Source: an uncultured Hormoscilla sp. (GTDB lineage Bacteria; Cyanobacteriota; Cyanobacteriia; Cyanobacteriales; Desertifilaceae). Taken from it: 64,000 nucleotides of DNA. Of this stretch, positions 4,219 through 59,156 are shown piece by piece (positions within the stretch are counted from its first letter, which is position 1; each line of letters opens with the position of its first letter). The stretch lies in NCBI GenBank assembly GCA_963921275.4, contig OZ001293.3, forward strand, positions 4,096,001 through 4,160,000. Reading direction: 5' to 3'. The position numbers and the translations under genes are program-made. Below the pieces are notes generated by a model that made no database searches, had not been told where the DNA came from, and saw nothing but the letters and a program-made list of their open reading frames with translations.

Positions 4219-4224
4219 AGCGCT

Positions 4225-5683: not shown

Positions 5684-5946
5684 TATTACCAATTTATCTG
5701 AGTCCGTTTCACCAGTTATCCCACCTTCGCATGCTAGGTATTGGGGCGTATTAGGGTTACTTTAGCCCGAGATTTCCTACTGTCACCGACCCCTGTTTGC
5801 TTATCCCAGGCATTAATTAGGGCTTTTGCTTCTTGGGCCATCCCTCCCACCGTAGCTTGCGCTTCACATCTGACTGGTCTCGGTAGACAGCACACGATGG
5901 GTTACTTCGTTCCCTAGTATCATTTCACGATGCTTTTAGGTTCCTA

Positions 5947-6864: not shown

Positions 6865-6923
6865 TTTTTTATCCTTATCATTCGTTCGTAGTAAGGACTT
6901 TAGTCCTTACCTCCGTCATGCAA

Positions 6924-7322: not shown

Positions 7323-7324
7323 TC

Positions 7325-15052: not shown

Positions 15053-15499
15053 TTACAGGTGGATAAAGGCGCGGATGCGATCGGCTATTTTTTGTTGACT
15101 TTTACTGCAACTTTTGTAGCGAACAGTAACAGGTACGCGATCGCCCCTTTTCAGCACTATTACTGTGCGGTAGCCAACCCTAGTATGACCTTTGCTGCGG
15201 GTTTTGTACTGTTCTACTTCTACTGTCCCGATCGCCCCGATCGCATATTCTCTGACTTTTTTACCACACAATCCATATTCTGTCAAGATTACTAATCCCA
15301 GAATTTTGTCAATATAGCAGGTTTCGATTTGAGCGACAAGCAGGAGATAGAGGAGTCCGATAAAAAGTGCGATCGCGCCTATAAATATCACAAACAAGAA
15401 ATAGAGTCCGATAGCAAGCCAAATGCTACCAACGATCCAGGCACTCCAGGGGTAAGCACGGAGTGTCAGGCGAATGGGCGTTTGCTCAATTACTTTCAT
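15053..15499 (-). CDS. Hypothetical membrane protein (2 TM)
   Basis: 148-aa ORF with two hydrophobic segments. Confidence 0.65.
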   Translation of the reverse strand: MKVIEQTPIRLTLRAYPWSAWIVGSIWLAIGLYFLFVIFIGAIALFIGLLYLLLVAQIETCYIDKILGLVILTEYGLCGKKVREYAIGAIGTVEVEQYKTRSKGHTRVGYRTVIVLKRGDRVPVTVRYKSCSKSQQKIADRIRAFIHL

Positions 15500-18400: not shown

Positions 18401-19073
18401 CCGCCGCCGCTGCCGCCGCCGCCGTTGCCGCCGTTGAAAATGCCGTCGCCGCCGCTGCCGCCGCTGCCGCCGTTGCCGCCGTTGCCGCCGGTTGAGCTGC
18501 TGAAGCCGCCGAAGCCGCCGCCGCCGAAGTCGCCGGGGCCGCCGTTGTTGCCGTTGCCGCCGCCTCTGCGGTCGCCGGCGTTGCCGGCGTTGCCGCCGAA
18601 GCCGCCGGGGCCGCCGTCTTCGTTGAAGCCGCCGTTGCGGCCGTTATTACGAGGAAAAGGAGTGAAATTAGCATTACCACCCGCTGCACGGCCGCCGCCA
18701 TTGCCACCCATGGCGCCATTATTCTGGAAAGTGCTATTGGTCACCGTGACCGTCCCGTTAAAGACAAACAGGGCACCGCCCATGCCTGCCGCCCCGCCGC
18801 CGCCATTGTCTCCCTGGGCCCGGCCGTTGCGAAAGGTCAGGTCATCGAAATTGACTGTACCGTTTCTGACAAAGAACAGCCAGTGTTGGTTGTTGCCATT
18901 AATGGTGTTGTTGTTCCCTTTTATCGTGAGCTGGACGTCTTCTTCAATCAGGGGTAGCAACCCTGCCAGAATAATATTTCCCGTGATGTTAATGGTATCT
19001 GTCTCACCGTTATTACTGGAATTGGTAATGGCTTGGGATAGTTCTGCTGGTGTGTCGCGTCAAATTGAGCCAT
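15496..19073 (-). pseudogene. Gly-rich, cadherin-repeat surface protein/adhesin with 5' frameshift and abrupt C-terminus
   Basis: About 8 repeats of PTD..LS...I.EN...G.VVGTF.T.DPD..D.FTY.LV...DFETQSSYSIRVQTTD; ATG at 19073 is out of frame near 19056 compared with paralog 59157; near-exact 300-bp internal duplication; no RTX-like tail. Confidence 0.75.
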
Positions 19074-23944: not shown

Positions 23945-24614
23945 ATGTCGATTAAAACAGACTAATGACATAATGCCGTGCCTCCGTTAAGAGTTTCCCA
24001 CTAATACAACTACTTTTGACCACACCCCCTGGAAACCGACATCTCTTCTGGGCAATCCTGTGAATTGAGGTAAATTTTATAGAAGTAAATACTTGTAAAT
24101 TTCTGGTAATATCGTGAACCAACCACGCTGCCAGTACATAACCGATGTGGGCGATTGCCAGGGCGATCGAGAAGCTAACAGCATTCCAGCACGATGTCCA
24201 GCATAGTCCAATGACGTATAAGTCTTTATTTTTATACCATAGCTGAGACCTGAATGCAAGCATCTCTTAGGTAAATTTTGCCAAAATCCGCTGCTAAAAA
24301 GCCCTAAAATCCAGATATAGCAATATTTTTACCAATATTTACCAACCTGGCACTTAAGCATTCGGTGAGGCCACTGGTCAGTGACCGGTGACCAGTGGTC
24401 AGACGCACGTCGCTGGTAAGTTATGGGAGCAAACCTGCACTAGAACATGGCTTGCACTGGCGATCGCACCTTTGGGCCAGGGGCCGATCGCGCAGCTATG
24501 TACCGGCGTCTGGCTGTGCTTATCTTGGAACAAGACCTGTCGCGACTATCTTGGTGTTGCGGACAACTATTGTGATATGATTGTCCGAAGAGCATACCAG
24601 GAGTAATAGCCAAG

Positions 24615-25376
24615 ATGAAGTCAATCCGATTTTTGCTTTTATCTTTTCTTGTCGGACTATTGATTATAGTAGTAGTTTCCTGCGCTAAATCAATTAGTCC
24701 GAAAGCAGCTGACTGGGGTTATAATGGGCCTGCTGGACCTAGTAACTGGGGAGAGTTAAGCTCAGAATTTGCCACCTGCCAACAAGGAAAGCAGCAGTCT
24801 CCCGTTGATATCAAGTCAACTACGAGTGCTAACTTGCCGCCGATTGAATTTAATTACAAGTATACCCCGTTTAAGGTGATCAACAATGGTCACACATTGC
24901 AGGTAGAATACGAACCAGGGAGTTCAATCAAGATCGGAGGGAAGCGGTACGAACTGCTTCAGTTTCATTTTCACGCACCCAGCGAACATAGTATTGACGG
25001 CAAAACCTATCCAATCGAAGCACACCTGGTTCACAAAAGTCAAGATGGTGAACTTGCTGTGCTGGGGATTTTCATGCAGTCGGGGCGGGAAAACAGTTTT
25101 ATTCAAGCCCTGTGGTCTAATTTACCAGAAGAACAAGGAGAAAACCAAGTCAGAGGTATTAGCGTTAATGCTAGCGCTATGCCACCAGTTAACAAGTCTT
25201 ATTACAATTATCCGGGCTCATTGACGACCCCTCCTTGTAGCGAAGGAGTTAATTGGATTGTGTTTAAAACCCCGATCGAGGTTTCCCCAGGGCAGATTGA
25301 CGCATTCAAGTCAATTTATAATGGAAATGCGCGACCAGTTCAGCCCCTGAATGGCAGGAATATTCAGGATAATTGA
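24615..25376 (+). CDS. ecaA: Alpha-class carbonic anhydrase, exported (possible lipoprotein)
   Basis: QSPVDI, NNGHT, QFHFH, SEH, EAHLVH, GSLTTPPCSEGV, NARPVQPLN; signal peptide ending VVSC. Confidence 0.92.
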   Translation: MKSIRFLLLSFLVGLLIIVVVSCAKSISPKAADWGYNGPAGPSNWGELSSEFATCQQGKQQSPVDIKSTTSANLPPIEFNYKYTPFKVINNGHTLQVEYEPGSSIKIGGKRYELLQFHFHAPSEHSIDGKTYPIEAHLVHKSQDGELAVLGIFMQSGRENSFIQALWSNLPEEQGENQVRGISVNASAMPPVNKSYYNYPGSLTTPPCSEGVNWIVFKTPIEVSPGQIDAFKSIYNGNARPVQPLNGRNIQDN

Positions 25377-34871: not shown

Positions 34872-36497
34872 ATGAAACTGTCTCGCCTGTTGACGCTGAT
34901 TATCGGTCTGACCGTAATCTTAGGGCTAATGCTGTGGATGATCGATACCCTGCGTTGGTTCTACTGGCAGATTTCTTATTCATCTCCCCTGCTGGGTACT
35001 ATTGTGCTGCTGTTGCTGATCCTGCTGCTAGGACTGGTAATCGCAGCTTTTGTCTATTACGTGCTGCTGTTTGGGGGGGCTGGCAGCAAAAAGGGCCAGC
35101 GCTATGTGAAGCCGAAAGTGCCTCAAGCTAAGAATGAGGCGGCTTCCGAAACACTCCGGGCCGTGCGCAAACAGGCCGAGCAAATTCAGGATAAGGTGGC
35201 CCGACAGGCTTTAATTGAGCGATCGCGCCAGATAGAAGGTAGCCTGCAAGCAGGGGTGTTGCGGGTGGTGGTGTTTGGCACTGGTTCAGCGGGGAAGTCT
35301 TCGGTGGTGAACGCGCTGCTGGGCCGGATGGTGGGGCAGGTGTCCGCACCCATGGGAACTACGGAAGCGGGGCAAACCTACAGCCTCCAGCTGAAGGGGT
35401 TGGACTGGCAGATTTTGATTACCGATACTCCAGGGATTTGCGAAGCAGGTGTGGCGGGAACCGAGCGGGAACAGCAGGCCCGAGAGTTAGCGACAGTAGC
35501 AGATTTACTGTTGTTCGTGGTGGATAATGACCTGCGCCAGTCGGAATACGAACCCTTGCGGACTTTGGCACAGATTGGCAAGCGATCGCTACTAGTGCTG
35601 AACAAAACGGACCTGTATCCCCCGGAGGAAATGGAAGCGATTCTGGGGCGTCTGCGGGAACGGGTGCAGGGGTTGATTCCTGGCAATGATGTGGTAGCCT
35701 GTGCGGCTAATCCCCCAGAGGTGGTACTGGACAGCGGCAGTATATTTCAGCAGGAACCGGACGTGATGCCTTTAATCCGCAGGCTAGCTGCGGTGCTGCG
35801 AGCCGAAGGAGAAGATTTGGTCGCGGACAATATTTTACTGCAAAGCAGCGCCTTGTCAGAGGAAGCAAGGCGGATTATCGACGCCCAGCGCAAGCGTCAG
35901 GCGGACAAAATTGTCGAGCAGTTTCAGTGGATAGGTGGTGGCGCGATCGCGGTCACGCCATTGCCAGTGGTAGATTTATTGGCAACTGCGGCGGTAAACG
36001 CTCAGATGGTAGTAGAAATCGGCAAAATCTACGGCTGCGAGCTCAATATGGAACGGGGACGAGAACTGGCCTTGTCTCTGGCGAAAACTTTGGCCAGTTT
36101 AGGCATTGTCGAGGGAGCATTAAAGTTGGTGACTGCGGCATTACAATTGAATGTGGCCACTTTTGCGATCGGGAAGGCAATTCAGGGAGTGACTGCGGCT
36201 TATCTGACCCGGATTGCTGGTAAGAGTTTTATAGAATATTTTTGTCACGATCAAGATTGGGGTGATGGGGGGATAATTGAGGTGGTGCAGCAGCAATTTC
36301 AGCTCAACCGCCGGGATGAGTTTGTCAAGGTCTTTATTCAAGATGCGATCGCGCGAGTCGTCCAACCTTTGAGCGATCGATTCTATTTCGTAGAAGAGGA
36401 AAAGGAACAGTCGGAACCGGCGTCACCCGCACCTATAAGCAAGTTTGAGCCCCTGGATGATTGGTCCGAACCGCCACAGATCCAGGATGATTGGTAG
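34872..36497 (+). CDS. Membrane-anchored GTPase with DUF697 (YcjF-like)
   Basis: GTGSAGKSS, DTPG, NKTD; N-terminal TMs; TPLPVVDLLA. Confidence 0.85.
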   Translation: MKLSRLLTLIIGLTVILGLMLWMIDTLRWFYWQISYSSPLLGTIVLLLLILLLGLVIAAFVYYVLLFGGAGSKKGQRYVKPKVPQAKNEAASETLRAVRKQAEQIQDKVARQALIERSRQIEGSLQAGVLRVVVFGTGSAGKSSVVNALLGRMVGQVSAPMGTTEAGQTYSLQLKGLDWQILITDTPGICEAGVAGTEREQQARELATVADLLLFVVDNDLRQSEYEPLRTLAQIGKRSLLVLNKTDLYPPEEMEAILGRLRERVQGLIPGNDVVACAANPPEVVLDSGSIFQQEPDVMPLIRRLAAVLRAEGEDLVADNILLQSSALSEEARRIIDAQRKRQADKIVEQFQWIGGGAIAVTPLPVVDLLATAAVNAQMVVEIGKIYGCELNMERGRELALSLAKTLASLGIVEGALKLVTAALQLNVATFAIGKAIQGVTAAYLTRIAGKSFIEYFCHDQDWGDGGIIEVVQQQFQLNRRDEFVKVFIQDAIARVVQPLSDRFYFVEEEKEQSEPASPAPISKFEPLDDWSEPPQIQDDW

Positions 36498-36878
36498 CTA
36501 CTCTACGCCCCGCGCCCCGACGCCCGAACCCTAAAGGGTCCGGCAGTTACAAAGCCCGCCTGCGCGGGCTAGATTATATTAAAGTGCGATCGCATTTTTT
36601 GTAGGTTGGGTTGAAGCATGGATGCTGTTGGCGAAATCCATCTCGAAAGACGAATAAGAGCGTGCTACAAGAACGAGAAATCTTTACTTGGGCGATTAGT
36701 AATACTCAATGTAAGATGCTTGGTAGCACATTCGCCAACAGTATCAAGCATGAAACCCAACCAGAACATCCTGTCGGACGGACAATAATTCCTGGCAGCA
36801 GAATAACGATCGCTTCTCTCAATCCTGGGATATAATAGAGGCGATCGATACCCACCCTAAAGCAATAAGCAAGTCGCT

Positions 36879-37127
36879 ATGACCAGAAAAAATCTATTAT
36901 CTCGGATTTCTATCGATCCGAATATCTGCTTTGGCAAACCTTGTATTCGGGGGCATCGCATTTGGGTTTCCCTAATCCTTGATTTCTTAGCCAGCGGGAT
37001 GACAATTTCCGAACTGCTTGAAGAGTATCCGGGTATAGAACGAGATGACATTCTTGCTTGTATTGCCTACGGCGCTGAGATGGCACGGGATCATTATATT
37101 GAGATTCCTCTGGAGGCGAAAAAGTGA
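36879..37127 (+). CDS. DUF433 antitoxin-like protein
   Basis: RISIDPNICFGKPCIRGHRI...ELLEEYP...DILACIAY. Confidence 0.9.
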   Translation: MTRKNLLSRISIDPNICFGKPCIRGHRIWVSLILDFLASGMTISELLEEYPGIERDDILACIAYGAEMARDHYIEIPLEAKK

Positions 37128-37495
37128 ACATAAAGCTTGACGAAAATCTTGGTAGCGGTCGAGTTGTAGCACGGTTACGTCTGGCAGGGCATGATGTAGC
37201 TACAGTGGAAGAACAAGGTCTGAATTCTACGCCTGATGTGGAATTAATTGATATTTGTCGCCAAGAAGGCAGATGTTTAGTTACTTTAGATCGGGGCTTT
37301 GGTAACCGCATCCGCTATAAACCTTCTGATTATGCTGGAATTGTTGTGCTACGCTTGCCACCGCAACCCACCCCAGAAAACTTGCGGGAAGTAGTGGAAA
37401 CCTTAATCCGTGGGTTGGATGCCGCAGAAATCGAGGGTAAACTATGGATTATCCAGCGCGGGACTATTCAGGAGTATCAAGCATATTCAGAATAA
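37124..37495 (+). CDS. DUF5615 PIN-like toxin
   Basis: IKLDENL, GHDV, D.ELI...EGRCLVTLDRGF; overlaps the DUF433 stop. Confidence 0.88.
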   Translation: MNIKLDENLGSGRVVARLRLAGHDVATVEEQGLNSTPDVELIDICRQEGRCLVTLDRGFGNRIRYKPSDYAGIVVLRLPPQPTPENLREVVETLIRGLDAAEIEGKLWIIQRGTIQEYQAYSE

Positions 37496-37639
37496 TTTGT
37501 CTTGCCCGGGGTGAGGTTAATCTACAAAAAAGAGAATTTGTGAGAAGCAGCGCGACAATAAGCGGAGATATTTTTGGGAGGAAAAGGACCATATAGTAAC
37601 GTGGGCATTGGGAGATCCGTCATTCGTGCAGGATTTGTG

Positions 37640-37970
37640 AAAGTGCGATCGCATTTTTTGTAGGTTGGGTTGAAGCATGAAACCTAACATTGACATCCTG
37701 GAGGGCGAACAATAATTCCTGGCAGCAGAATAACGATCGCATTTTTTGTAGGTTGGGTTGAAGCATGAAACCCAAAATTGACATCCTGGAGGGCGGACAA
37801 TAATTCCTGGCAGCAGAATAACGATCGCATTTTTTGTAGGTTGGGTTGAAGCATGAAACCCAAAATTGACATCCTGGAGGGCGGACAATAATTCCTGGTA
37901 GCAGCAGAACGATCGCTTCTCTCAATCCTGGGATATAATAGAGGCGATCGGTACCCACCCTAAAGCAATA
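37640..37970. repeat. REP-like tandem repeats (~87 bp) plus duplicated toxin-antitoxin upstream region
   Basis: CGATCGCATTTTTTGTAGGTTGGGTTGAAGCATGAAACC x3; matches 36580-36866. Confidence 0.8.
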
Positions 37971-38040
37971 ATACCATTTGCAAAAAATGTTGCTACAATT
38001 CGTACCCTCTAATTTGCTCTCTTCGCTATCAGCCCGCCTT

Positions 38041-38084
38041 CGGTGTATCGTGGGAGCGCTATTCGCACTACCCACGATACACCG
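38041..38084. repeat. CG-bounded mini-hairpin element (net 42 nt)
   Basis: CG-GTGTATCGTGGG-AGCGCTATTCGCACTA-CCCACGATACAC-CG. Confidence 0.8.
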
Positions 38085-38213
38085 AGGGTTCAAACCCCCT
38101 ACGTTCTCAGGCGGGAGCCAGGGAACGAGGCTAAAGTCGGTTAAAACCGACTAACAGGATACTGCTCAAAAAAATGTAACATATTTTTTATGAAATGGGA
38201 TAAGCAAGTCGCT

Positions 38214-38425
38214 ATGACCAGAAAAAATCTCTGATCTCGGATTTCTATCGATCGCAATATCTGCTTTGGCAAACCTTGTATTCGGGGGCATAGGATCTGG
38301 GTTTCTCTAATTCTTGACTTCTTAGCTAGCGGGATGACTATTTCGGAACTGCTTGCAGAATATCCTGGTATAGAACGAGATGACATCCTCGCTTGTATTG
38401 CCTACGGCGCTGAGATGGCACGGGA
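38214..38425 (+). pseudogene. Second DUF433 copy with early stop and no toxin partner
   Basis: Close nucleotide match to 36879-37090; TGA at codon 7. Confidence 0.8.
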
Positions 38426-39126
38426 TTCCTATGTCGAAAGCAACTAAAGGCAGAGTCTTCAGAAATCGGGCGATCGATCGCCTGTTGCGGTATGGTAAGA
38501 TTTGCGATCGCAGGGCAATAAAAAGCGGGGATATTTTTTGCTGCCAGCACATTCACCAGTAGACCAGAAACCCGGTAGGTCGTAAAAAGGGTGCGGTCAC
38601 AAGTAGTTTGAAGTCTGCAGACTCATAACCGGTTTGGTGCGACCTGCTGCAGGTGCTGAGAGACCAAAATTGATAAAGAAACCCGGTTTCACCGCTTACC
38701 GCCCCCACGGGAGTATCCTCCGACAAGCGCAAATATGATTTACTCCGAAGCATATTTACTTTATCTCTCAGCAAATATGATTGGCACCGAAGCATATTTG
38801 CTTTGGTCATTTTAAATAATATTTGCCGCCGAGCAAATATTATCTGCCGCCGAGCAAATACCATCTAGGCCTGCCGATCTATGTAATGATCCGGAGTTTT
38901 CCCGGGATCCCCCGACTAGATAGATACTAGACCTGGCGTCCGCCAGTCAGATGACGACGGGTGTAGTCTTGCACCAGTTGGTAAAAAAATACTACACCCA
39001 CTTCTGGTGGGCAGTGCTGGCAGTGCCCCACCTTAGGAATGCAACGACAAATGAGCCGCACCCTCGTAAAAACCGGGTTTCTTGATTCTTTATTGCGATC
39101 GGACCGGGGGAGAATTATTTCGGACA

Positions 39127-39666
39127 CTACTCCCTGGAATCTTTGGCAAAACCATTCTCAGCAGGAGCATTTCTTAAGTTTACATCCTGCTGAGAATCTG
39201 CCGCCGGGTTTTGGATAGAGAGTTCTGGGGGTAGCGGGATAGTTATTTGCAGGTTTACACCAATTTTTATTTGATTGTTATCAAAACTTATATTAGTTAT
39301 ATTAACCACATTATTTCCTAGCGAACCATCACTGACTGGTAATTTAGTAGGGAGCTGCGTTTGATATCCAGCATCATCAAGCCACTCAGCAATATCTCTC
39401 CAGTTTTCTATCTTTTCACCGCTTTTGTCTACTAGACTTTTAACGTACTTATATATAGTGGCGCAGAGATCCGTTTCCACGCCCTTGCTATTTTTGCCCA
39501 GCGTGTCAGCGATTTTTGTTGGACTACAGCCACAAAGCAGCCCCCGCAGGTGCAGCTTCTCAACAGGTGTCAGTCGCTTGCCCTTAGCGGAGGCCAAGTC
39601 AGTGTAGAGAGTTTCCAAGTCCCAGTGCTGTGCGGCCTGGGCAAACTGCTCGTTAGTAGATTTCAT
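39127..39666 (-). CDS. HTH-domain protein (vWA-MoxR-associated N-terminal HTH-like)
   Basis: WDLETLYTDLASAKGKRLTPVEKLHLRGLLCG.SP.KIA.......V.TDL...IYKYV. Confidence 0.7.
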   Translation of the reverse strand: MKSTNEQFAQAAQHWDLETLYTDLASAKGKRLTPVEKLHLRGLLCGCSPTKIADTLGKNSKGVETDLCATIYKYVKSLVDKSGEKIENWRDIAEWLDDAGYQTQLPTKLPVSDGSLGNNVVNITNISFDNNQIKIGVNLQITIPLPPELSIQNPAADSQQDVNLRNAPAENGFAKDSRE

Positions 39667-39996
39667 AGTTGGTCTCTTCTAAAATTACTGATAGGATCCT
39701 AACACAATTCCTGATACACACCCGGAGATTACTGTATAAAGCTAGCTTATGATGAATATACAGTAGTTGACAGCGGTGCGATGCTACAGGGAAAGAGGGC
39801 GAGAGAGTCGAAGCTCAAGCAGCCGGTGATGGAAATGGCCATCCGGACGTTACCTCAGCCAAGATACTGTCCAACTGCCGGTGTCGTGCCGCCAAACTGC
39901 TCGTAAGCAGATTTCATAGCTAGTCTCCGCTCAAATTCCTGATTGAATCCTAACATAATCACTGATATCCACCCGGTAATTACTATGTAAAGCTAG

Positions 39997-40893
39997 GGCG
40001 TGTCATCAGTTAGATTAACGATATGGGTCCCCACCAAAAATATATAACAAGATGATTGAGTTGACAACCAGGATATATTGGTGTAATATAAGAGGGTAAA
40101 GGTTAGAGCAGGAGAATTTGAGAAATGCGTCGCTATGCTTTAAGAGATGACCAGTGGGAGAGAATCAGGGATCTATTGCCAGGTCGGGAGGGTTATGTGG
40201 GGGGGACAGCTAAGGATAACCGCTTATTTGTCTATGCTGTCTTGTATCGATATAGAGCTGGGATACCTTGGCGGGACAACTTACCCGAGCGATTTGGGGA
40301 CTTGAGGGTAATTCATACGCGCCATAGTAGGTGGTCAAAATCCGGGGTATGGGAAAGAGTATTCAAGGTACTTGCGTCCGATGCCGATAACGAATATGCG
40401 ATGATTGATGCCACGATATAAAGGGCTCATCAACATAGTGCAGGTGCTCAAAAAAAAGATTGCGACCCAAGCCATCGGACGCCGTAAAGGGGGTTTGAGT
40501 ACCAAAATTCACGCGACCTGTGACGCATTGGGGAACCCAACGGGTTTTCATTTAACAGCCGGTCAAGCTCACGATTTGGAAGGGGCTGATGTGTTACTTG
40601 ATAATATTAAGGCTGATGCGTTACTCGCAGACAAAGCTTCTGATGCTGACGAACGGGTTTTGAAACGTCTTGAAGCCCAGCAATGCGAACCTGTGATTCC
40701 GCCTAAATCCAATCGAAAAGAACAACGCCGTTATGACAAATATCTATACAAAGCACGTCATTTGATTGAGAATTTTTTTGCCAAACTCAAGCAATATCGA
40801 GCCATTGCCACCCGTTACGATAAGAGGGCTCAGAATTTCTTGGGTGCTATCTACCTGGCTGCTACTGTTGTTTGGCTTAACTGATGACACGCC
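39997..40893 (+). mobile_element. IS5 family (IS427-group-like) element, two ORFs with an A-tract frameshift; ORF A has a premature stop
   Basis: TIRs GGCGTGTCATCA / TGATGACACGCC; CTAG duplication; ORFs 40125-40421 and 40405-40884 (YKARHLIENFFAKLKQYRAIATRYDK). Confidence 0.88.
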
Positions 40894-40947
40894 CTAGCTT
40901 ATGATAAGTAAAGTAATGGGAAAATCATACGAAACCGGTCTCTAAAA

Positions 40948-42101
40948 GTGGACTTCTTTGAAATTACTGCCGAGGCTGAAAGCCGCTATGACAGGCACAA
41001 CCTGATTGACTGGTGGGACCAGGCAAAACTCAAGGCTGCCAGAGTGCTGGTGACTGGTGCTGGTGCTTTAGGCAACGAAGTGCTGAAGAATTTGGCCCTG
41101 GTGGGTGTCGGCAATATCACCGTCATTGACTTCGATACGGTCTCGGTCACCAACCTAACTCGGTCCGTCCTGTTTCGAGAATCAGATGTCGGCTTGCCGA
41201 AAGTAGAAGTTGCCCGTAAACGCGCCCTTGAGATTAACCCAGAGATAACAATTGAGGCAATTCACGGCGATCTGGAATTTGACATCGGCATTGGGGATGT
41301 TCGGGAACATGACATTATTATAGGTTGCCTGGACAGCATTAATGCGCGGTGGGCGATTAATCAGCTTGCTTATCGTGCAGTCATTCCCTGGATCAACAGC
41401 GGTATTGGCGTTACTGAGAAGGAAGTAAGTTTTTTCGATCCCAAAACAGAAGCAGCTTGTTATGAATGCACCATATCTAACCGGATGTGGGAGAGGCGCA
41501 ACCAGCGATACTCTTGTCAGGGGATGAAACGGAATCTTCCTGAAGCTGCCATGCCCACGACAGCCCCAATAGCCTCCATAGCTGGTGCGATGCAGGTTCA
41601 CCAAGCACTCCTATATTTCACGGCAAAACAGGACTACTCGATCCAGGGGAAAAAATATTTCTGGGATTAAATCCTTGGACAGCTCTCAAAATGCAAATTC
41701 AGCGTCAGGAGACTTGTCTTGCCCACGACTTATCCATTGAACCGGCAATAGAGATCGAGTACGATCCAAATATGAAGGTGCAAGAAGTTCTGAAACAGTT
41801 AGATACATCGGGATATGCCGAACCAGTTCTCTGGCTACGCAATGAAGTGATAGGCAAGATGACCTGCCATAAGTGCGGGTATGAGGAACAGGCGAACGCT
41901 CCCCTACGCAAATATCAAGAATCCCAGCAAGCTTGCCCCAAGTGTGGTTATGAATCAAGGGATTTTGAAGTAATCAGGAATCTGACTCTAGAAGATTCCT
42001 GCGCCAGCGTTATCTTAGAAGAGTTATGTCTGACGACGAACGAAATACTACACTGCGAGACCGCGAAAGGTCAAATAGCAATTCAATTTCGCCCAGCATA
42101 G
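40948..42101 (+). pseudogene. E1-like ubiquitin-activating enzyme (ThiF/UBA) with C-terminal Zn-ribbon region; single frameshift near 41617
   Basis: RYDRH, GAGALGNE, DFDTV..TNL.R, CYEC, RYSC; the alternate frame HGKTGLLDPGEKIFLGLNPW joins ORF 41691-42101 (CLAH, CHKC, CPKC). Confidence 0.85.
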
Positions 42102-42112
42102 GAGGAGTAAAT

Positions 42113-42373
42113 ATGGCTGATGCACTTTCTGTAGTTGTTCGTATGGCTGATGGAACCCGTAAAGCAGCCGTTAACTTGCCTGGTACTCTCATAATTGGAC
42201 AGCTTGTGCAAACCACACAGCAAAAGTGGAATCTTCCCGCTAATTCCAACTATGCTGTGCGTCTTGAGCGTACAGGTCAACAGTTAGACGCTTCTGCAAC
42301 TCTTAATTCAGTAGGAGTTCAGCCAGACGATGTGCTCTTAATTTTCCCAGTTTTAGAGGCCGGTCAAAAATGA
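42113..42373 (+). CDS. Ubiquitin-like beta-grasp protein (EsaB/YukD-like), 86 aa, ending LEAG-QK
   Basis: ATG behind GGAGGAG; TGQQLDASATLNSVGVQPDDVLLI is a Ubl-like signature; lies between E1 and E2. Confidence 0.8.
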   Translation: MADALSVVVRMADGTRKAAVNLPGTLIIGQLVQTTQQKWNLPANSNYAVRLERTGQQLDASATLNSVGVQPDDVLLIFPVLEAGQK

Positions 42374-42888
42374 GTGTACGAGAAAAAAGACTCCAAAATG
42401 ACTTTCAAAATTTATCGGCACTGGTTGATAACTCTGGTGGTACGCTAGCGATTATTTCAACGAGTGGCAATCCGCCGTATCAATATGTTATCGAATATCG
42501 ATGTCGAGGCATAGAGCAGTTGCGAAGATATGAGCCAGATGAGCCAGTGTTCCGCAATACTCATCGGGTATAAATTACTCTAGGCAGCAATTATCCAAGA
42601 GAACAACTGGCTGCTAAGTTTCTTACTCCCATCTTCCATCCCAATGTCTATAGCAGTTTAATAATTTGTCTTGGCAATGATTGGACAATTTCAGAAACCT
42701 TAACTGAATTAGTTATCAGAATTGGCAAAATAATTCAATATGCAGATGACATAACCAATTTGAAAAGTCCAGCTAATGGGGAAGCTAAAAGCTGGGCAGA
42801 AAGGAATAAGCTGCGTCTTCCAGTAGATACTCAGACATTCAAATCCCAAATTTTTTCTTGGGATGAACAACCGGTCAACATTAGTTGA
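42370..42888 (+). pseudogene. E2 ubiquitin-conjugating enzyme-like protein with one in-frame TAA (42571-42573)
   Basis: Readthrough: REKRLQNDF...NYPREQLAAKFLTPIFHPNVYSSLIICLGNDW...NLKSPANGEA. Confidence 0.85.
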
Positions 42889-42910
42889 CAAGATTTATAG
42901 GGTGATAGTC

Positions 42911-43483
42911 ATGAACCAATTTATCCAATTTATTTCCAATATTATTAGGAGGATACGCATGTCACAAGGACCGGAGTTACCATTTACTCGACGAAATAAC
43001 CCTGAAAGAAGAAGAATTCCAGATTCAGAACAGCAAGATCAAATTGTCTGGGAAGACAGTGCTCAAATTGTTTGGGAAGACAGTGAGGATGTTTATAGGC
43101 CGATTCCCAAAAGACATAGTAATTTTCAAGCTGAACGCGGCGTCGCAGCACCACGAGTGTATATCAAAGCGAATGCTCTTCATGAACTAAAAGATCATCT
43201 AGCATCTAATACACGAGTTGAACAAAGTGGTATTCTTTTTGGGAATGCCTACCAAGACCAGCAGCATGGAGTCTACGTTGAGATTACAGCAGCCGTAGCC
43301 GCCCCAGCAACAATTGGAACAAGCGCACACCTAGACTTCACGCCTGATTCCTGGCAGGGAATTATGGATTATGCGAAGTCTAAGCATTCCGGAGAAAACA
43401 TTGTAGGCTGGTATCACTCTCATCCGAATATTGGCGTGTTCATGTCAGGAACGGACTTTTTTCTCTATGACAACGCTAAATAA
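42911..43483 (+). CDS. JAB/MPN+ (JAMM) metalloprotease, probably C-terminally truncated
   Basis: EQSGILFG...VGWYHSHPNIGVFMSGTD motif; ORF ends 8 residues after the motif. Confidence 0.85.
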   Translation: MNQFIQFISNIIRRIRMSQGPELPFTRRNNPERRRIPDSEQQDQIVWEDSAQIVWEDSEDVYRPIPKRHSNFQAERGVAAPRVYIKANALHELKDHLASNTRVEQSGILFGNAYQDQQHGVYVEITAAVAAPATIGTSAHLDFTPDSWQGIMDYAKSKHSGENIVGWYHSHPNIGVFMSGTDFFLYDNAK

Positions 43484-43889
43484 ATTGGTATTAAGGATAA
43501 CCATAAATTGTCGAGATATGAATGGGAAAATATTATTTTATTCCGCTGCGATCGCGTATAAAGAATAGCTAAAATGACAATGTTTTTAGTCGGTTTTCAA
43601 CCGACTTTAGCTATTAGCCGGGGGTTTGAACCCCGGCGGGCTATCGGAACAGATACAAGATATATTTGAGAACAGATTTTGGGATTAGACGTGAGCGAGG
43701 TTCGGCGATCGCCCCAAATACTTCCCCCGAAAACAGAGATGCGATCTGGTACTTTTGTTTAATATAATTTAGGCTGCGTAGGCGGACTTGGTTTGTATAG
43801 CCCTACCCTTTAGGGTTAGGGCGGGGTAGCGGGCGCAAAAGTGAGGTTCACCCGAGGCGATTGCCTCTTGCTGGGATAGGGTGCAATAT

Positions 43890-44003
43890 GCTAAACTACA
43901 CAACAGACTTGCCTTGCATGGGTCTTAGGGGCACGCCAGCAACACCTGACCGCAGTAGAGAGAGTTTGGGTCCTCTTCCACCAGACTACTCTTAGCATAC
44001 AAG
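43890..44003 (-). mobile_element. IS110 left-end remnant with intact target-binding-loop region and target junction
   Basis: Homologous to 4383-4470; minus-strand junction TGCCGTGCCC-CT-TGTATGC. Confidence 0.7.
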
Positions 44004-44279
44004 GGGCACGGCATCAATAAATTATCGGGTGATTGAATTAATTAACTCACGCCATGCCCCGGACGGCACCGCATATTATTGCCGATAACAATATAATTGG
44101 CGATCGCCCTAAATCCTTCCCCGAAAACTCCAGATGCGATCGCCCCAAATTCTTCCCCGAAAACCGAGATGCGATCGCCCGTAAAGAGGAAAGTATCGGG
44201 GTTGTTACCATTGGTCATATTAATTAAAAAACGACGAGCAGTTTCGTAATCCATCTCCAGTAATATCTGGCGCAACACT

Positions 44280-44947
44280 CAGGGTATACTGCTGGTGGAG
44301 TGGGTATGGCAGCAGCCTTTAGCTTCTATCCCAGCAAAAATTTGGGAGCTTGTGGGGATGGTGGTATGGTTTTGACCAACAATGCCGAAGTGGCCCAAAA
44401 TGTGCGATCGCTCTGCAACTACGGAGCCCCGCACAAATATTATCATACCGAGTTCGGTATCAACAGTCGGCTGGATAACTTACAAGCAGCCATACTCAAT
44501 GTTAAACTTCCCTATCTGGAGCCGTGGAACCAATCTCGTCGGGAAGCAGCAACCATTTACGACGCCCAACTAGAACCATTGCAGGATCTAGGAATTCTTC
44601 CCATTCAGAACCACAGCAATACGGGGCACATTTATCATTTATACGTAATCCGCCTGCTGTCCACTTGCTCCATAGACCGGGATATCCTAGCTGAGAAACT
44701 GAACGCCCAAGGCATTCAAACTGGCATCCATTATCCCATTCCCTGTCATCTACAACCAGCTTATAAATATTTAGGCTATCGTGCTAGTGACTTTCCCCAG
44801 GCCGAAACTCTCTGCCAGCAGATTCTCTCCTTACCCATGTATCCCGGTCTGACTACCGATCGGATCGGGGGCATAGTCGCTACCATTAAATCAGCGATCG
44901 ACGCCTCCGGGGTTTTTGCGTCAGCGCAGCGGCTGCGCAGCCGCTAG
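44280..44947 (+). pseudogene. DegT/DnrJ/EryC1/StrS aminotransferase, 5'-truncated
   Basis: FSFYPSKNLGACGDGG, NSRLDNLQAA, LSLPMYP; N-terminal half missing. Confidence 0.85.
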
Positions 44948-45055
44948 CATCCCGGAGGCGTCGAAGGTGTGTCATAGGACTGCGCGTTTGTCTGTCCGAG
45001 GTAACCAATAACTGATAACTAACAACTGACATGGTGGGCAATGCCCACCTACCAA

Positions 45056-45550
45056 ATAGACATCTCCAAAATAGAAATTTATGCTATAATAAGATTTGAA
45101 AATTTAATTTTGTGACGAGTATTACCTGGACATATTTGCAAGCCAAGCCTAAAGAAGCAAAACGGCTCATCGGTATCAGCTATGAAAACTTAATACAACT
45201 TATTGCAATTGCTAAAAAGTTGGATAAAAATCATAAAGAAAAGGTGGAAGAACACAAAACTAGATTGATAAGTCGGAGGGGTGAAAGCTAAATTATTAGT
45301 AGAAGAGCAAATAATTTTAACTTTGATGTATCTGCGTCAAGGATTAACATTCCCAGTATTAGCTATACTTTTGTCAGTGAAAGCTAATGATATTTTTAAT
45401 TATTGGCAAGATATTTTCCGCTTTGCCGTTTACTTGAACAAAAAAATGGAGAAGATGAAGAATATTTATCTAAACTTTTAACAGAATATGAGTTGATAGT
45501 CGATAGCGCAGAGCAAGCCATACCAAGACCTAAAGACTATGAAGAGCAGT
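45056..45550 (+). pseudogene. IS5/ISL2-like transposase N-terminal fragment
   Basis: KRLIGISYE, EQIILTLMYLRQ, ELIVDSAEQAI.RPKDYEEQ across frameshifts. Confidence 0.7.
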
Positions 45551-46254
45551 AGGTGACCCGTCCAAGTCACGATTACCGGGGAAGTCGTCAGACAGGGATT
45601 CTATCCCCTAGCTCAGCCTTCCCTCTCTACCGCTTTGCTGATCTCCGGTGGCACGAACCAGCAAGCAGACCTGCGAAGGGTACTGGTACGTCGGACTTTA
45701 ATCGATGGTTCTGCGATCGAGAAAGAGATTGACCTGTTTAGCGCTCTGAAAAACTCCGAGCCAATACCCGATTTACGCTTAGAAAATGGAGATGTGGTGA
45801 TCTTGCCTCAACTGCCACCGGACGATCGCGATTATGACCGGGCATTGATCGCTACTACTAACCTGGCTGAACCACAGATCAGGCTCAAGCTTTTGAGATC
45901 CCCTGGTGGGATTGGTAATCTCACATTGCCAAACGACAGTACCTTTGTCGATGCGCTGCGATCGGGGCAAATCCTGACATATCCGACATCCGAAACATTG
46001 CTTTGATCCGGTTTGAGCCAAAAGAGGGCAGAACGGTTACCTATATCTTAGATGGTAAAAGTGCTCTGCTGGGTGACACCGATCAAGACCTGCTTTTGCG
46101 CAATCACGATGTCATTGCCGTAGGTCGAACCCTGATCTCTAGGATTAGTTTTGCCCTGATGACTATAACCCAACCATTCCGAGATATTTTGGGATTTCTG
46201 TTGTTCTTCAATCAATTTGATAATGTCTTCAACGAAGATCGCAGAAGAAACTGA
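45551..46254 (+). pseudogene. Polysaccharide export protein (Wza/SLBB) C-terminal fragment, frameshifted
   Basis: VQVTITGEVVR.GFYPL, ADLRRVLVRR, L.NGDVV, TQPFRDILGFLLFF. Confidence 0.75.
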
Positions 46255-46303
46255 TCGGTATTAAAATAATTTAACATCAAAAATTACCAAGGAAAATGCT
46301 ACC

Positions 46304-47450
46304 ATGACTTCACCCATTGTTAAGCGCTATCTGATTGCCTTAAATAAATACTGGTTTTTGATACCAGTGGGAATTTGGGTCGGTGTAGCTGGGGGCTTTG
46401 TTTACGATCTTTTTTTGCAATCGACTACCCAACAAACTGAATACACGATTACAGGAGTGCTGCGGTACACTCGTCCCCCAGTGACATTTTCTGAAATAGG
46501 TAATGTGATTCAAGACCAGGGACAGAAACTGACCCTGGAGGAACTGCTGGTTCCTAAGGTGCTGGAGTCAGTGATAGCATGAGATGGAGTGAAAACCGCG
46601 CCAAAAGATATTGTAAAAGCGATAAATGTCACACCTCCTAAAAAAGATAACTCAAAGCTGATGGTTATCTATAAAACGACTGATGAGTCGGAAGGACTGA
46701 TCGTAACGACAGCATTAATGGAGGAGATGGTAGAACGGAGTCGCGAAATCAATATAACCCTTTGGCGATTGGTGATTGACGAAATTAACAAACGCTTGCC
46801 AGCAGTGCTGGAGGAAATCCGGGCCGCAGAGCAAGATTTGGAACAGTTTATCCGACGAGAGCAAACGGCACTCTTAGCGATCGAAGCTGGGCAATTACCA
46901 GGCTCAATTGTCAGCAGTCAACAACAGCAACGACAGATTCAACTCCAGCTAGAGGGGATTGAGGCCCAAATGCAAAGCCTGTCCGAGCAACTGGGGTTGA
47001 CACCGGAAGAAGCCTACGCTTCAGCAGCCCTCAGTGCCGACCCGATTATTGCCGATCTGCGGGCCCGATTCTATCAAACTGAAACTCAAATGCAGCTAAT
47101 GAGTCAAGATTTGCGACCCGATCATCCATAATGATGCAGTTGCAGCGGGAACTCGAATCCTCTGAGCAATTGCTAGAGCAGCGAGCAGATGAGGTGATAG
47201 GCGGCAATGGCCAAGGGACACCACTTGTCAGTGAGACGATTCGCCAAGACAGCAACCTGGATCCAGCACGGCAACAGCTGGCTCAGACTCTAGTAAGTTT
47301 ACAAACACAGCGGGAGTAACTGCAACGGCAATTGCAGGTGGCGAGTGACCGAGAGCAGGAACTAAGACAACGGTATGAAACTCTGCCCAACAAGCGACTG
47401 GAAGAAGCGCGGTTGCAGCAACAGCTGGAGTTGAAAAAGAGTTTTTACAT
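46304..47450 (+). pseudogene. Wzc/GumC-like polysaccharide co-polymerase, multiple stops, truncated
   Basis: MTSPIVKRYLIAL.KY, coiled coil, ASAALSADPII; broken into four ORFs. Confidence 0.75.
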
Positions 47451-47678
47451 GGCTGAGTCCATCAATCTCCTCGCCTCTACGTGTGAATTCCGATTTTTGG
47501 GAGCCATCATTAACGGAGAGTATATGCCTCTGCACTCACTATCACCCATCGAGTCTCCAGCTTGATCGTTGTTCATTGAAAATTGAAAATTGGCGTTCCC
47601 AGGCGGGAGCCAGGGAACGAGGAAAATTGCCAATTGTGAATTTGTGATTATTTATTCATGTCCATTTTCCATTTGCCA

Positions 47679-49236
47679 TTATTCATCATAGTCAAATGGA
47701 TGGGGTCGAGCCGGGAATCGCTTCCCGACCCTCCCTTGAGGAACCGGACTTGCGATTTTCACCGCATCCGGCTACTGGGTACTAGGCCCTTTTCATAGGT
47801 AGACTTAATAGGAATTACTTCCGTTAGCCCTTGCCGCCTGTCTTTTCTTCCCTTTCCTGGTTTAGCGAGTGGTTGTTCTGATAACCGTTAGTATCACCAT
47901 TTTCAAGTCAGTTTTACCAGTTATCCATACCTTATCCTCCACTTGCGTTTCGGATTAGTTCCGTGGCTTTTTAGGATTACTCATTCCAGCAGCTTCCTAG
48001 TATCACCGACCCACGTCAGCGCTGGCTACCCAGCATCATCTACATTACTGTAGATGTTATCCCAGGAATTACCCCGGGCATTCGCTTCTTGGGCCATCCC
48101 TCCCCCCGTGGCTTGCGCTTAACATCTAACTTGTCCTGATGGACAGCACACGAGAGGTTACTTCGTTCCCTAACAACATTTCGCGATACCTTTAGGTCCA
48201 CACTATACCCCGGGAGCTATTTGAGTACTATATTAGCCAGAGTCTAAAACTAATACTAGCTACCATTTCCTTTTTAGGCCAGCGCATATAGCCTTATTTC
48301 GCTGGTTCCTTATAACGAGGCTTGCACATGTTTGCCTGCTCTAACCTTGGATATCTTTCCTAGCGGCGTCACCGGCTTAGGCTGCCAGTTATCCTACATT
48401 TGAGTCCTCGCTTAGCACCACGATGATGTCGCTTCGTAGCACCGAGGACCGGTGTCACCCCCGTACCTGGGGGGAGGGGAATTTAACCCCCATGCGGTCA
48501 GAGTTCCTGGCTAATGAAACCGGGCTAGCGTTCCGTGTTTGACCACGTTAGGCTAGAACGAATCGCACAGACCCATCAAGGGTGCTAAAAGCGCCCCAAA
48601 CACAAATCCACCAGCATGGGCCCAGTATGCAATTCCGCCCATATTAGCGGGTGCATTCAGACTGGCAAAGCTAGAAATCGCTTGGGTGACAAACCAAATA
48701 CCCAGAAAAACCATCGCTGGGATGCGAATGGTAGTGATAAAATACCCCAGGAAAACCAATGTGAGAACTTTAGCCCGGGGAAACCTGATAATGTAGGCTC
48801 CCATTACACCTGCGATCGCCCCTGACGCGCCCAAGGAAGGGATATCAGAAGACTGGGAAAAGAACCACTGGGTCAATGCCGCCAACATCCCGCAGATCAG
48901 ATAGAAGATGATAAATTTGACATGACCCAGTTTATCTTCCACATTGTTGCCAAAAATCCAGAGAAACAACATATTCCCTAACAGGTGCATCCAACTCCCG
49001 TGCAGGAATTGGGAGGTAAACAGAGTCAGCCACTCTGGCACCGGTTGGTTTACTGCCACGCCAGTAAAGCTAGCAGATAGCTCCCTGGGAACCACTGCAA
49101 ACAGGTGGTAGAATTCTCCTAGTTCTTGGGGTGCCAAACTAACTTGATACAGAAAAATCAGGATATTCGTAGCAATCAGCCCATAGGTAAAATAGGGGGT
49201 TGATTGGGTGGGATTTTCGTCATGTAAGGGAAACAT
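47679..49236 (-). CDS. Rhomboid family intramembrane serine protease (exons 49236-48569 and 47697-47679; unspliced ORF ends at 48553)
   Basis: FLHGSWMHLLGNM, GASG, AHAGG. Confidence 0.88.
47698..48568 (-). mobile_element. Complete-looking ORF-less group II intron (~870 nt)
   Basis: 5' GTGCGATTCGTTC at 48568; DV AGCCGGATGCGGTGAAAATCGCAAGTCCGGTTC; DVI ending CGACCCCATCC; no RT ORF. Confidence 0.85.
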
Positions 49237-58059: not shown

Positions 58060-59071
58060 ACTCAAGTTGCGACCTATAAAAATTGGATACAAAAAGCTAT
58101 GATAAAGAGAATTATTTTTAACTCTAATCCCTTAGATGTAACAGCATGAATTGACTTGGGAAACAAATTGGTGATTCGACTAAAACAGGTTTCAACTTGT
58201 TTTCTTGTTACTTTTTGTATATATTCAAAACAAGAATATTCTTTTCTTTTTGAGTTCTTTTTTCGCAAAGGTTTTAACATTATACTTGACGACTCTTTTA
58301 GTAAATCCTCTAATTGATAATCATTATAAGCTTTATCTCCATAAACTATTGAATTTGATGGTAAGTCAAAGCCAAAAGATTGCAAAACTTTAACATCATT
58401 ATAACTACCAGGATCTAGATAAAATTCTATTGGCTTTCCATTTTTGTTTACCAACATATGAACTCTTAATCCATAAAAATAACGTTTTTTACTGGCAATA
58501 TACCCTCGATATTCTTCCTTGTTATAAATTTGGCATCTATCAATCCTAATATTATCACATACTGGCACCGGGAAACTATCAAGAATATATTCTTGACCCG
58601 GATTGAGCTCTTTAAATGTTTGAGCTATAACTTGGAAGAAAAACATCCAAATTGGTTCCTCAATATTGTGTAATCGACGATTGAACCTACTTTTACTTAA
58701 CAGATTTTTTATATACTTGTGTTGAACCATAAATTGACAAGAGCGATCGTGGTGTCCTCCGAAAAAATATGCAGCAACTAATCCGACTGTCATCACTTCG
58801 GCATTGTTCATTTTTACTTGTGGATCTTCTTTTATATTTAACGCTTTTAGTGGCTCGTCACAAAGAACAAAAATTGTTGTAATCATATCTTCCATCATCT
58901 ACATCCCCCAGCAATTAACTATTATTTTAGTACATTATAACCTATAAACAGCCAACCCGCCGTCTAGCACAAAAAAAATATAATTTTGTATCAAAAGCTA
59001 CGAAATATCCCAAATATCTGTAAAGTCTAAGTGGGTAATTCATATTTTTTTTAATAGGTCGCAACTTAGGT
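58060..59071 (-). mobile_element. IS982 family element, copy 3 (transposase 58074-58898)
   Basis: Same TIRs; 7-bp TSD TATAATA; D/D/E residues intact. Confidence 0.9.
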
Positions 59072-59156
59072 TATAATAGCTAAAAGCTGACTTCCCTCAA
59101 GGTCGCCAGTGACCAGCCCCTAAAAAAGTTCATCATTCCTTACATCAGGAGAAATT

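Follow-up and report, generated by a model that had tools for sequence, protein, structure and literature searches.

A 64-kb stretch of the genome of an uncultured Hormoscilla sp. (contig OZ001293.3; hereafter the window, to which all positions refer) carries on its forward strand, at 40948–43483, four tightly spaced genes in the order E1 (ThiF-type activating enzyme), ubiquitin-like protein (Ubl), E2 (conjugating enzyme) and JAB (JAMM-type peptidase). Very probably, the cluster is a copy of a mobile ubiquitination cassette of eukaryote-like type that lost its function only recently. An earlier model-made reading of the same DNA (the first-pass annotation) gave every open reading frame (ORF), motif and coordinate of this interval correctly, and its identification of a ubiquitin-like conjugation operon, as opposed to a sulfur-carrier system, is agreed here, given that E2 and JAB genes belong to the operon. 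Its description of a “hidden” operon that only needs in silico repair is no longer tenable, since four independent lesions were found and downstream genes have been lost. The premature end of JAB homology at 43456, a 905-bp insertion sequence (IS) and the missing downstream partners had all escaped that reading, and hence also the status of the cluster as a relic. In the following, L-numbers denote related loci and G003 a genome of the same genus.

The Four Genes and Their Lesions

The first ORF (40948–41670) encodes an E1 of the ThiF family (Pfam PF00899, E = 8.4e-53) with the motifs VTGAGALGNE and CYEC and, in RYSC, a candidate catalytic cysteine (TGT at 41515–41517). The lesions within E1, E2 and JAB were called from DNA alignments with four relatives (L010, L015, L016, and L017). 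In these alignments the frameshift, previously placed near 41617, is located exactly: one G has been deleted between 41618 and 41619, leaving TATTT-CAC in the window compared with TATTTGCAC in L010, L015, and L016 and TATATACAC in L017. The gene is thereby divided into a 5' piece with the adenylation domain (GAGALG, CYEC, RYSC; 40948–41618) and a 3' piece (41619–42101), in which reading resumes in the −1 frame through CLAH and the CHKC...CPKC zinc ribbon to a TAG at 42099–42101. Between them, the two pieces retain every one of the 31 invariant columns in an alignment of 32 orthologs. Eight cysteines are invariant in the 32 E1s, namely those of CxxC, the RYSC cysteine, C260 and the four-cysteine ribbon.

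An ortholog of this E1, 387 aa long and with one ThiF stretch, was modelled at a pLDDT (predicted local distance difference test) of 90.1. Ranked by Z-score, MoeB comes first among solved structures (Z 31.1, root-mean-square deviation 1.8, 231 residues). MoeB and ThiF cover residues 12–265 of the ortholog (Z 30–31, 229–234 residues aligned), single-domain MoeB being aligned over residues 13–264 of the model. SAE2, UBA3, Uba1, UBA6, and UBA7 align over 296–316 residues, both C-termini included, and the model thus suggests that the C-terminal zinc-ribbon domain of the E1 occupies the place of the E2-recruiting ubiquitin-fold domain (UFD).

The Ubl gene (42113–42373, plus strand) is intact. It is preceded by AGGAGGAG, encodes 86 aa ending in ...LEAG-QK, and its stop codon overlaps the E2 start via ATGA. 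The model of the protein, built from a 37-row alignment (pLDDT 85.5), has a beta-grasp fold, as had been supposed. Foldseek's top matches in the PDB are ubiquitin, SUMO, and ISG15, and all 49 matches listed are chains of these proteins or ubiquitin-like domains; Caldiarchaeum ubiquitin is among them, and the target-normalised template-modelling score lies at 0.81–0.86 in the ten best. Of 37 members of the family, 22 match Pfam Rad60-SLD, 18 YukD and 8 ubiquitin, and neither ThiS nor MoaD is found among the 10 Pfam families listed for them; the window protein itself has no Pfam match at an E-value of 0.01. In relatives, the Ubl terminates with AG or GG, which in several cases is followed by 1–5 further residues (QK, C, QQ, VTP, VRAV, RE, WC, TA, and YYPLC were seen). 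The EAGQK end and the ATGA overlap are common to L017, L018, and L030, which indicates that the tail in the window belongs to a natural pro-form and did not arise by damage.

The E2 gene (42370–42888, plus strand) begins inside the ATGA that ends the Ubl gene. It is interrupted by an in-frame TAA at 42571–42573, a G>T change of a codon that is GAA in all four relatives (GTATAAATT in the window compared with GTAGAAATT in the relatives). Past this stop, the distal half reads FHPNVYSSLIICLG, contains the HPNV...IICLG stretch of a canonical UBC domain and matches Pfam UQ_con (2.1e-07); no start codon stands ahead of this catalytic half. The top phmmer matches in the PDB are the eukaryotic UBE2A/B, Rad6, and Ubc9 (1.6e-07), which align through the HPN motif, the cysteine and the SPAN motif. 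HPN and cysteine are invariant across 16 E2 sequences, and with these matches the UBC fold claimed for the read-through product is borne out. The window copy keeps 34 of 35 invariant columns.

The fourth gene (42959–43483, plus strand) is the remnant of an Rpn11-like JAB/JAMM peptidase (Pfam JAB, 9.8e-10) with the signature HSHPNIGVFMSGTD (HSHPx6SxxD). Its start is most likely the ATG at 42959, which lies behind AGGAGG and is aligned with the starts of the orthologs. The frame ends at 43483, while homology to L015–L017 already ends at 43456, after the SGTD codons of HSHPNIGVFMSGTD; the last nine codons are unrelated. Orthologs run 200–300 aa further and include a transmembrane (TM) helix: hydropathy analysis revealed one TM segment in two of three cleanly read JAB proteins, and it is strong and situated after the catalytic domain in L015 and L017. 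The top PDB matches of an ortholog are Rpn11 (1.2e-13), CSN5 and the Rpn11-like protein of Caldiarchaeum (6.6e-09).

In place of the 3' part of the operon, short dispersed repeats occupy 43457–43650. A blastn query with 43440–44320 returned 138 high-scoring segment pairs in the genome, mainly for 43565–43650. This repeat (about 70–90 bp, with 85–97% identity between copies) resembles a miniature inverted-repeat transposable element.

Inactive or Functional?

A functional operon would require that the breaks in E1 and E2 are assembly errors or instances of programmed recoding (−1 frameshifting and read-through, respectively) and that the short JAB is natural. The lesions are indeed few, the invariant residues of E1 and E2 are preserved to the extent given above, and Ubl gene, HTH (helix-turn-helix) gene and ribosome-binding sites are intact. 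Nevertheless, this alternative is very improbable. In the orthologs, the frame is open across the E1 break and a sense codon (GAA) stands in place of the E2 stop; the sequence TATTT-CAC forms no slippery heptamer and no long homopolymer, and the catalytic half of E2 has no start codon of its own. Contigs (Logan) of three runs from one study show zero differences to the window over 40900–43596, at depths of 18–82. Loose contig ends at 43457 in three runs indicate that 43457–43493 is also present elsewhere. Furthermore, a related strain was detected in a run of another study that is labelled as a sponge metagenome (X7); it is 91–93% identical, with 64 of 960 and 49 of 540 letters differing. This relative carries the extra G behind 41618, and at the point where JAB homology gives way to the dispersed repeat, one of its contigs continues the JAB frame past 43456 in an ortholog-like manner (translated MRTQRAFFYH). 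In the 7.03-Mb genome, tblastn searches with the window pieces and the L009 proteins detected no second operon copy, no JAB C-terminus and no genes for the zinc-finger (Zn-finger) partners described below; apart from the locus itself, they matched just an apparently frameshifted paralog of the HTH gene and, at 33% identity, an unrelated gene of the ThiF family. A systematic error at the lesions is made less likely by the related strain and by the absence of these genes. Programmed frameshifting and read-through were rejected, as the orthologs are uninterrupted, a slippery site is lacking and the JAB end and the Zn-finger genes are gone.

Two points weigh against the inactivation of the cluster. 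The study behind the three runs may also have supplied the assembly, in which case their agreement would not be independent evidence against a systematic error. In addition, the Ubl and HTH frames, the only ones that are whole in the window, could still be expressed and act alone.

The preservation of all 31 invariant columns in E1 and of 34 of 35 in E2 implies that the inactivation is recent. Identity between the relic and its nearest intact orthologs is only about 75%. A second copy of the operon in the same genus (L010; G003:C83:6000-17000, 4178–6190) is broken at other sites: the N-terminus of E1 is replaced by a short tandem peptide-repeat sequence, the C-terminal glycine of the Ubl is lost, a stop lies near the start of E2 and only about 100 residues of JAB remain before it is cut. 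At the site of the window's E1 frameshift and at the E2 GAA codon, L010 is intact. As the G003 copy is broken at different places, the operon has decayed independently, at least twice in the genus.

In the window, the pathway cannot operate: E1 is frameshifted, a nonsense codon precedes the catalytic half of E2, JAB is without its membrane part and the final section of its fold, the Zn-finger genes have been deleted and an IS cuts off the regulator side.

The Insertion Sequence and the Divergent HTH Gene

The IS lies upstream of E1 (39993–40897, plus strand) and encodes an IS4/IS5-type transposase in two frames (40125–40421 and 40405–40884; Pfam DUF4096, 2.8e-22, and DDE_Tnp_1, 1.4e-19). At least 20 further copies with about 98.5–99% identity were identified in the genome by blastn. 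It separates E1 from a divergent, intact gene for an HTH-type protein of 179 aa (39127–39666, minus strand), a candidate regulator; in L009, the spacer between the HTH gene and E1 measures only about 140 bp. The HTH protein matches no Pfam or PADLOC model. In the ESM Atlas, the clusters closest to it are those of cyanobacterial HTH regulators (0.97) and of HTH_VMAP-M9 (0.90). The suspected link between this gene and the operon gains support from its recurrence, since a divergent HTH gene stands beside E1 in L009/L015, L016, L020, L031, L013, and L014, and only there. It is plausible from its sequence and position that the HTH protein regulates the operon.

Two further HTH genes were observed. 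A paralog outside the window (G000:C1:3339155-3339600; 61–69% identity) is spread over two frames and appears frameshifted. In L064, the divergent upstream gene (4573–5292, minus strand) combines, as judged by eye, a similar HTH N-terminus with a P-loop (GISGIGKTT) in a STAND-like region.

Distribution and Synteny of the Family

A search with the E2 of L009 retrieved 109 proteins at E ≤ 0.001, which, where named, are annotated as “ubiquitin-conjugating enzyme E2” (NCBI). Hosts include Floridanema, Argonema, Microcoleus, Kamptonema, Microcystis, Nostoc, Nodularia, and Calothrix. The E2 family was found in eight of 61 sampled relatives and, across the phylum, in 15 of 401 genomes; the present genome is part of both counts. 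Thus, its distribution is sporadic.

A pattern scan of species-representative genomes yielded 62 related loci, whose genes were assigned by tblastn (E ≤ 1e-4). The four genes do co-occur in other genomes: at 45 of these loci, E1, Ubl, E2, and JAB follow each other in this order on one strand within 6.5 kb, and the loci that share the order belong to cyanobacteria, Proteobacteria, Chloroflexi, and Desulfobacterales. Non-cyanobacterial hosts include Cupriavidus, Photobacterium, Burkholderiales, Cellvibrionales, Desulfobacterales, and Anaerolineaceae. Among the remaining 17 loci, four are situated at contig ends (L029, L054, L058, and L061) and one is an isolated E2 fragment (L053). The other twelve, mostly actinobacterial, show matches to E2 and JAB and, with the exception of L072, to E1, and have no Ubl detectable by BLAST. 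In one of these twelve, L064, inspection by eye revealed a frame of 99 residues (about 86 aa from the first methionine) that ends in GG between E1 and E2.

Variations on this arrangement were noted. In L014 and L064, which represent a divergent cyanobacterial subtype, JAB is followed by a VirD4/TraG-like protein, identified in L014 (2484–4226) as a coupling protein by Pfam (T4SS-DNA_transf, 6.8e-17) and NCBIfam (VirD4-like) and in L064 (8463–10199) by eye. The E2s of the proteobacterial and Chloroflexi versions (L049, L055, L057, and L059) appear to carry an extra C-terminal CxxC...CxxC ribbon (by eye).

Candidate Membrane Zinc-Finger Partners of Intact Relatives

The first-pass annotation regarded the system as complete with four genes. 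Intact relatives add one to three genes for membrane Zn-finger proteins of RING/U-box-like appearance. Such genes are located in tandem downstream of JAB at 24 of the 62 loci, all of them cyanobacterial. Each encodes an N-terminal hydrophobic helix followed by the consensus ...KDPV[ST]QExFxPGExVYxCxx[HC]xLAYHEDSWx...CxxC, and 29 sequences share its D, C, H, S, W, C, and C without exception. Hydropathy analysis assigned one TM segment to each of five proteins tested. Fusions to TPR repeats (L022, L025, L032, and L038) and to Big_2 (L041 and L042) occur. In proteobacterial and Chloroflexi loci (L049, L055, and L057), a TM protein with a similar Zn-finger is encoded upstream of E1, the N-terminal helix having been computed for L049 and L057. 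The upstream Zn-finger proteins are located at 4558–5618 in L049, 4536–5626 in L059, 5159–5530 in L055, and 4300–5391 in L057. Between such a protein and E1, L049 and L059 contain a small ORF with J-domain-like sequence (...YHPD..., by eye).

The Zn-finger appears to keep only about one zinc site (C-x2-H/C ... C-x2-C). In our reading, D-P-V-T/S stands in for the first cysteine pair of a RING, which would be U-box-like. Bacterial versions of the Pfam family Prok-RING_1 reportedly occur with TM helices. Neither in the window nor in the whole genome was a gene for a Zn-finger/RING partner detected by tblastn with the L009 proteins.

A complex of the L015 E2 with the Zn-finger domain was modelled with a score of 0.66, the best of three controls reaching 0.02. 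Of 157 solved complexes, 116 attain that mark, as do two of 215 mismatched pairs; these counts are approximate since the complex was modelled with our own alignments. At least 96% of contacts are common to the runs, and the partner has a pLDDT of at least 80. The E2 contacts fall on residues 3–14, 73–74, and 103–107, corresponding to helix 1, loop 4, and loop 7. In the model, the predicted Zn-finger site is the canonical E3 face of E2 that is used by RING and U-box E3s.

Comparison With Known Systems

The cluster is a broken member of an already known kind of system, and the closest characterised system is the Ub/E1/E2/srfp/Rpn11 operon of “Candidatus Caldiarchaeum subterraneum”. This operon encodes a pro-ubiquitin, an E1-like and an E2-like protein, a small RING finger protein (srfp) and an Rpn11-like JAMM peptidase, and was reconstituted in vitro; complete operons of this kind are stated there to occur sporadically in bacteria as well (PMC5654768). 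In both systems, one beta-grasp Ubl is produced as a pro-form that extends a little past the C-terminal glycine, JAB is Rpn11-like and E2 is a canonical UBC protein with HPN. The E1 is compact in both, and its C-terminal domain, ubiquitin-like or UFD-type in Caldiarchaeum, may be of the same type here, judging from a whole-model alignment. The small RING finger protein has a possible counterpart in the Zn-finger partner of the intact relatives, which in our model contacts loops 4 and 7 of E2, the loops mutated in that study (PMC5654768). The present family differs from Caldiarchaeum in its bacterial host, in the gene order E1-Ubl-E2-JAB-Zn-finger and in a Ubl that ends in AG instead of GG. Further differences are the TM helix in the JAB and Zn-finger proteins, the four-cysteine ribbon in the C-terminal domain of E1 and a Zn-finger with about one zinc site; moreover, the window copy is broken and devoid of a Zn-finger gene. 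The complete bacterial operons cited in the Caldiarchaeum work are reportedly those of Burroughs, Iyer and Aravind from 2011. No experimental work on the cyanobacterial operon and no account devoted to it or to the Zn-finger family turned up in full-text literature searches, whose coverage did not extend to Burroughs et al. 2011 and 2012.

Anti-phage systems offer another frame of comparison, and the first-pass annotation had referred to Bil/Bub-type systems and to the E1–E2/JAB of CBASS. That the cluster belongs to one of these characterised systems (Type I or II Bil, Type I or II Bub, or Type II CBASS with Cap2/Cap3) is, however, highly unlikely. Their features were taken from three reports (PMC11601596; bioRxiv 10.1101/2023.09.26.559546; PMC1779556). 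The parts list of E1, E2, Ubl, and JAB is shared, as is the sporadic distribution, and the PADLOC CBASS models “E1-E2” and “JAB” match the adenylation and JAB domains (E-values down to 1.5e-19 and 1.1e-07). The features that define the E1, E2, and JAB proteins of these types are, in contrast, not found. As described in these sources, Bil has an E1 of the IAD-AAD-CYS type, an E2 of the CEHH/6c-6d type without the classical histidine and no E3; Type I Bil has a Ubl with two beta-grasp domains. For Bil, conjugation of the Ubl to lysine has been demonstrated. Like Bil, the present family has separate Ubl, E2, JAB, and E1 genes and is sporadically distributed. Unlike Bil, it combines an E1 of 387 aa containing a single ThiF domain with an HPN-bearing E2 that matches UQ_con, a single-domain Ubl and, in relatives, a Zn-finger partner.

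Bub, according to the same sources, forms oxyesters on tyrosine or serine, possesses E1 and E2 proteins without catalytic cysteine, a DUF6527 serine protease and fusions (Ubl-E2, JAB-E1, and E2-E1). Although both have an E1, an E2, a Ubl and a peptidase of the JAB family by which the C-terminal glycine is exposed, the genes are separate here and the catalytic cysteines of E1 and E2 are both invariant, unlike in Bub (6E/DUF6527); no DUF6527 match was found among the nine L009 proteins scanned (genes 1844–7491). In Type II CBASS, Cap2 is an E2–E1 fusion that works with a CD-NTase and is accompanied by the JAB protein Cap3. The present family shows no E2–E1 fusion, and the PADLOC E1–E2 models match the adenylation part only (positions about 157–320 of 426). 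The Pfam scan of the window, which covered 54 ORFs out of 158 frames of at least 85 aa, yielded no nucleotidyltransferase (CD-NTase). PADLOC had no model at E ≤ 0.001 for the E2, Ubl, Zn-finger, and HTH proteins, and NCBIfam likewise nothing for these four.

A still less likely alternative, a ThiS/MoaD-type sulfur-carrier or cofactor-biosynthesis module, would fit the MoeB/ThiF-like adenylation domain of E1, its zinc site (CxxC...CxxH/C) and its best NCBIfam matches (ThiF and MoeB models, all far under their cut-offs), and is contradicted by the E2 and JAB genes that share the operon at 45 of 62 loci, by the ubiquitin-type fold and Pfam matches listed for the Ubl, and by the scans, in which neither a rhodanese in the L009 E1 (Pfam and NCBIfam) nor, as had been claimed for the whole window, any ThiS/MoaD, thiamine or molybdopterin family among the 54 ORFs was detected. 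MoeB/ThiF systems, moreover, have no E2, JAB, Zn-finger partner or C-terminal UFD-like domain, and their carriers are ThiS/MoaD proteins and not Ub/SUMO-like.

Proposed Mechanism and Purpose of the Intact System

Gene identities, lesions, synteny, and sporadic distribution have been shown directly, whereas thioester chemistry, E3 role, membrane location, and biological purpose are inferred. The following scheme draws on homology to the reconstituted archaeal system and to eukaryotic enzymes. In intact relatives, the Rpn11-like, membrane-anchored JAB protein would trim the short tail of the Ubl (QK in the window copy) and thereby expose the C-terminal glycine. A homodimer-type E1 of MoeB size would adenylate this glycine and then form a thioester on the invariant cysteine of RYSC. 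The UFD-like zinc-ribbon domain at the C-terminus of E1 would recruit E2, and the Ubl would be handed to the E2 cysteine beside the HPN motif. One to three membrane proteins of the RING/U-box-like type would dock on helix 1, loop 4, and loop 7 of E2, acting as E3s or substrate adaptors, so that the membrane Zn-finger protein would bring E2~Ubl to targets at the cytoplasmic membrane. JAB would also reverse the tagging, and the divergent HTH protein probably regulates the operon.

With regard to the purpose of such a system, conflict or defence and the control of membrane proteins have roughly even odds. The sporadic distribution, the spread across phyla and PADLOC-type neighbours in nine of 27 loci point to conflict or defence. 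TM-anchored ligase-like and protease parts, the fusions to TPR and Ig-like domains and the lack of a recognised effector point to membrane housekeeping.

It may be, although the odds are somewhat against it, that the intact relatives constitute a complete membrane-anchored bacterial system of E1, E2, E3, and deubiquitinase, serving conflict/defence or membrane-protein control, in which an HPN E2 and a UFD-like E1 work with a TM Rpn11-like protease and TM ligases that are half RING and half U-box and in some cases fused to substrate-binding TPR or Ig-like modules.

Several points count against the preferred reading of the cluster and its family. We found no experiment on any member of the bacterial family, and the chemical steps rest on homology. 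The UFD assignment comes from alignment ranges of a whole-protein model and not from a stand-alone domain search. Pfam Prok-RING_1 matches the Zn-finger region in four proteins with E-values of 0.025–0.071, below its 29.1-bit cut-off. As RING–E2 complexes have already been solved, the score of the modelled complex may reflect likeness alone, though this likeness is itself what the E3 reading requires. PADLOC, run on the window pieces and the intact L015 proteins, recognised generic CBASS E1–E2 and JAB domains only and no system-specific model. Finally, the defence-island signal is a weak hint: among 107 flanking ORFs of 27 loci, nine loci produced PADLOC matches beyond TnpB-like and transporter models, in a comparison without a background control (MzaA, mad2/3, NsnA, PD-T4-6, PDC-S28, Type III REase, QatBC, and HEAT-type models).

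Genomic Surroundings

The remaining neighbours in the window are ordinary and include Mfd-like, penicillin-binding, BioY, LspA, cytochrome c-550, and AccD-like proteins. The sole BATS-domain match belongs to a radical-SAM protein next to BioY, which is read as a biotin synthase. Gene fragments, four IS copies, and two reverse transcriptases of group II introns are present as well, and these surroundings fit a genome whose accessory genes decay. Both reverse transcriptases/maturases carry an HNH domain (2244–4064, plus strand; 10545–12365, minus strand) and have identical Pfam scores. An Rfam scan of 36000–48000 identified only a group II intron domain at 47700–47776 on the minus strand (RF00029, 44.4 bits). 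In addition to the IS beside E1, a DDE transposase of 274 aa (DDE_Tnp_1_3) is present in three copies (4689–5510, minus strand; 8895–9716, plus strand; 58077–58898, minus strand), the genome being rich in IS elements.

Downstream of the dispersed repeats lies a fragment of a DegT/DnrJ aminotransferase gene (44264–44944, plus strand) that covers profile positions 152–359 of 360, the first approximately 150 residues being gone. One deletion or rearrangement may explain the loss of both the JAB end and the DegT/DnrJ start on either side of the repeats. Elsewhere in the window, genes for a eukaryotic-type (alpha) carbonic anhydrase (24576–25373, plus strand; 3.2e-50) and for two large cadherin-domain proteins (15499–19059, minus strand; 59124–61280, plus strand) were observed.

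Implications

For the present genome, the cluster, read as a dead copy, is a further sign of ongoing decay in a genome crowded with group II introns, IS elements, and broken genes. The intact relatives are more interesting than the window copy and are worth bench work. Some of their hosts on record, Microcystis and Oscillatoria sp. PCC 10802 among them, are culturable, and the chemistry and the targets of the system would be testable there. The E2, JAB, and Ubl proteins of the family are closer to eukaryotic and Caldiarchaeum proteins than to those of Bil, Bub, and CBASS, and the family bears on the pre-eukaryotic origin of E1-E2-E3 logic. Should the tentative reading of the intact relatives prove true, they would represent a bacterial counterpart of eukaryotic membrane ubiquitination, and the decay of the operon in two genomes of an IS-ridden genus would mark the cassette as dispensable for the lifestyle of these cyanobacteria.

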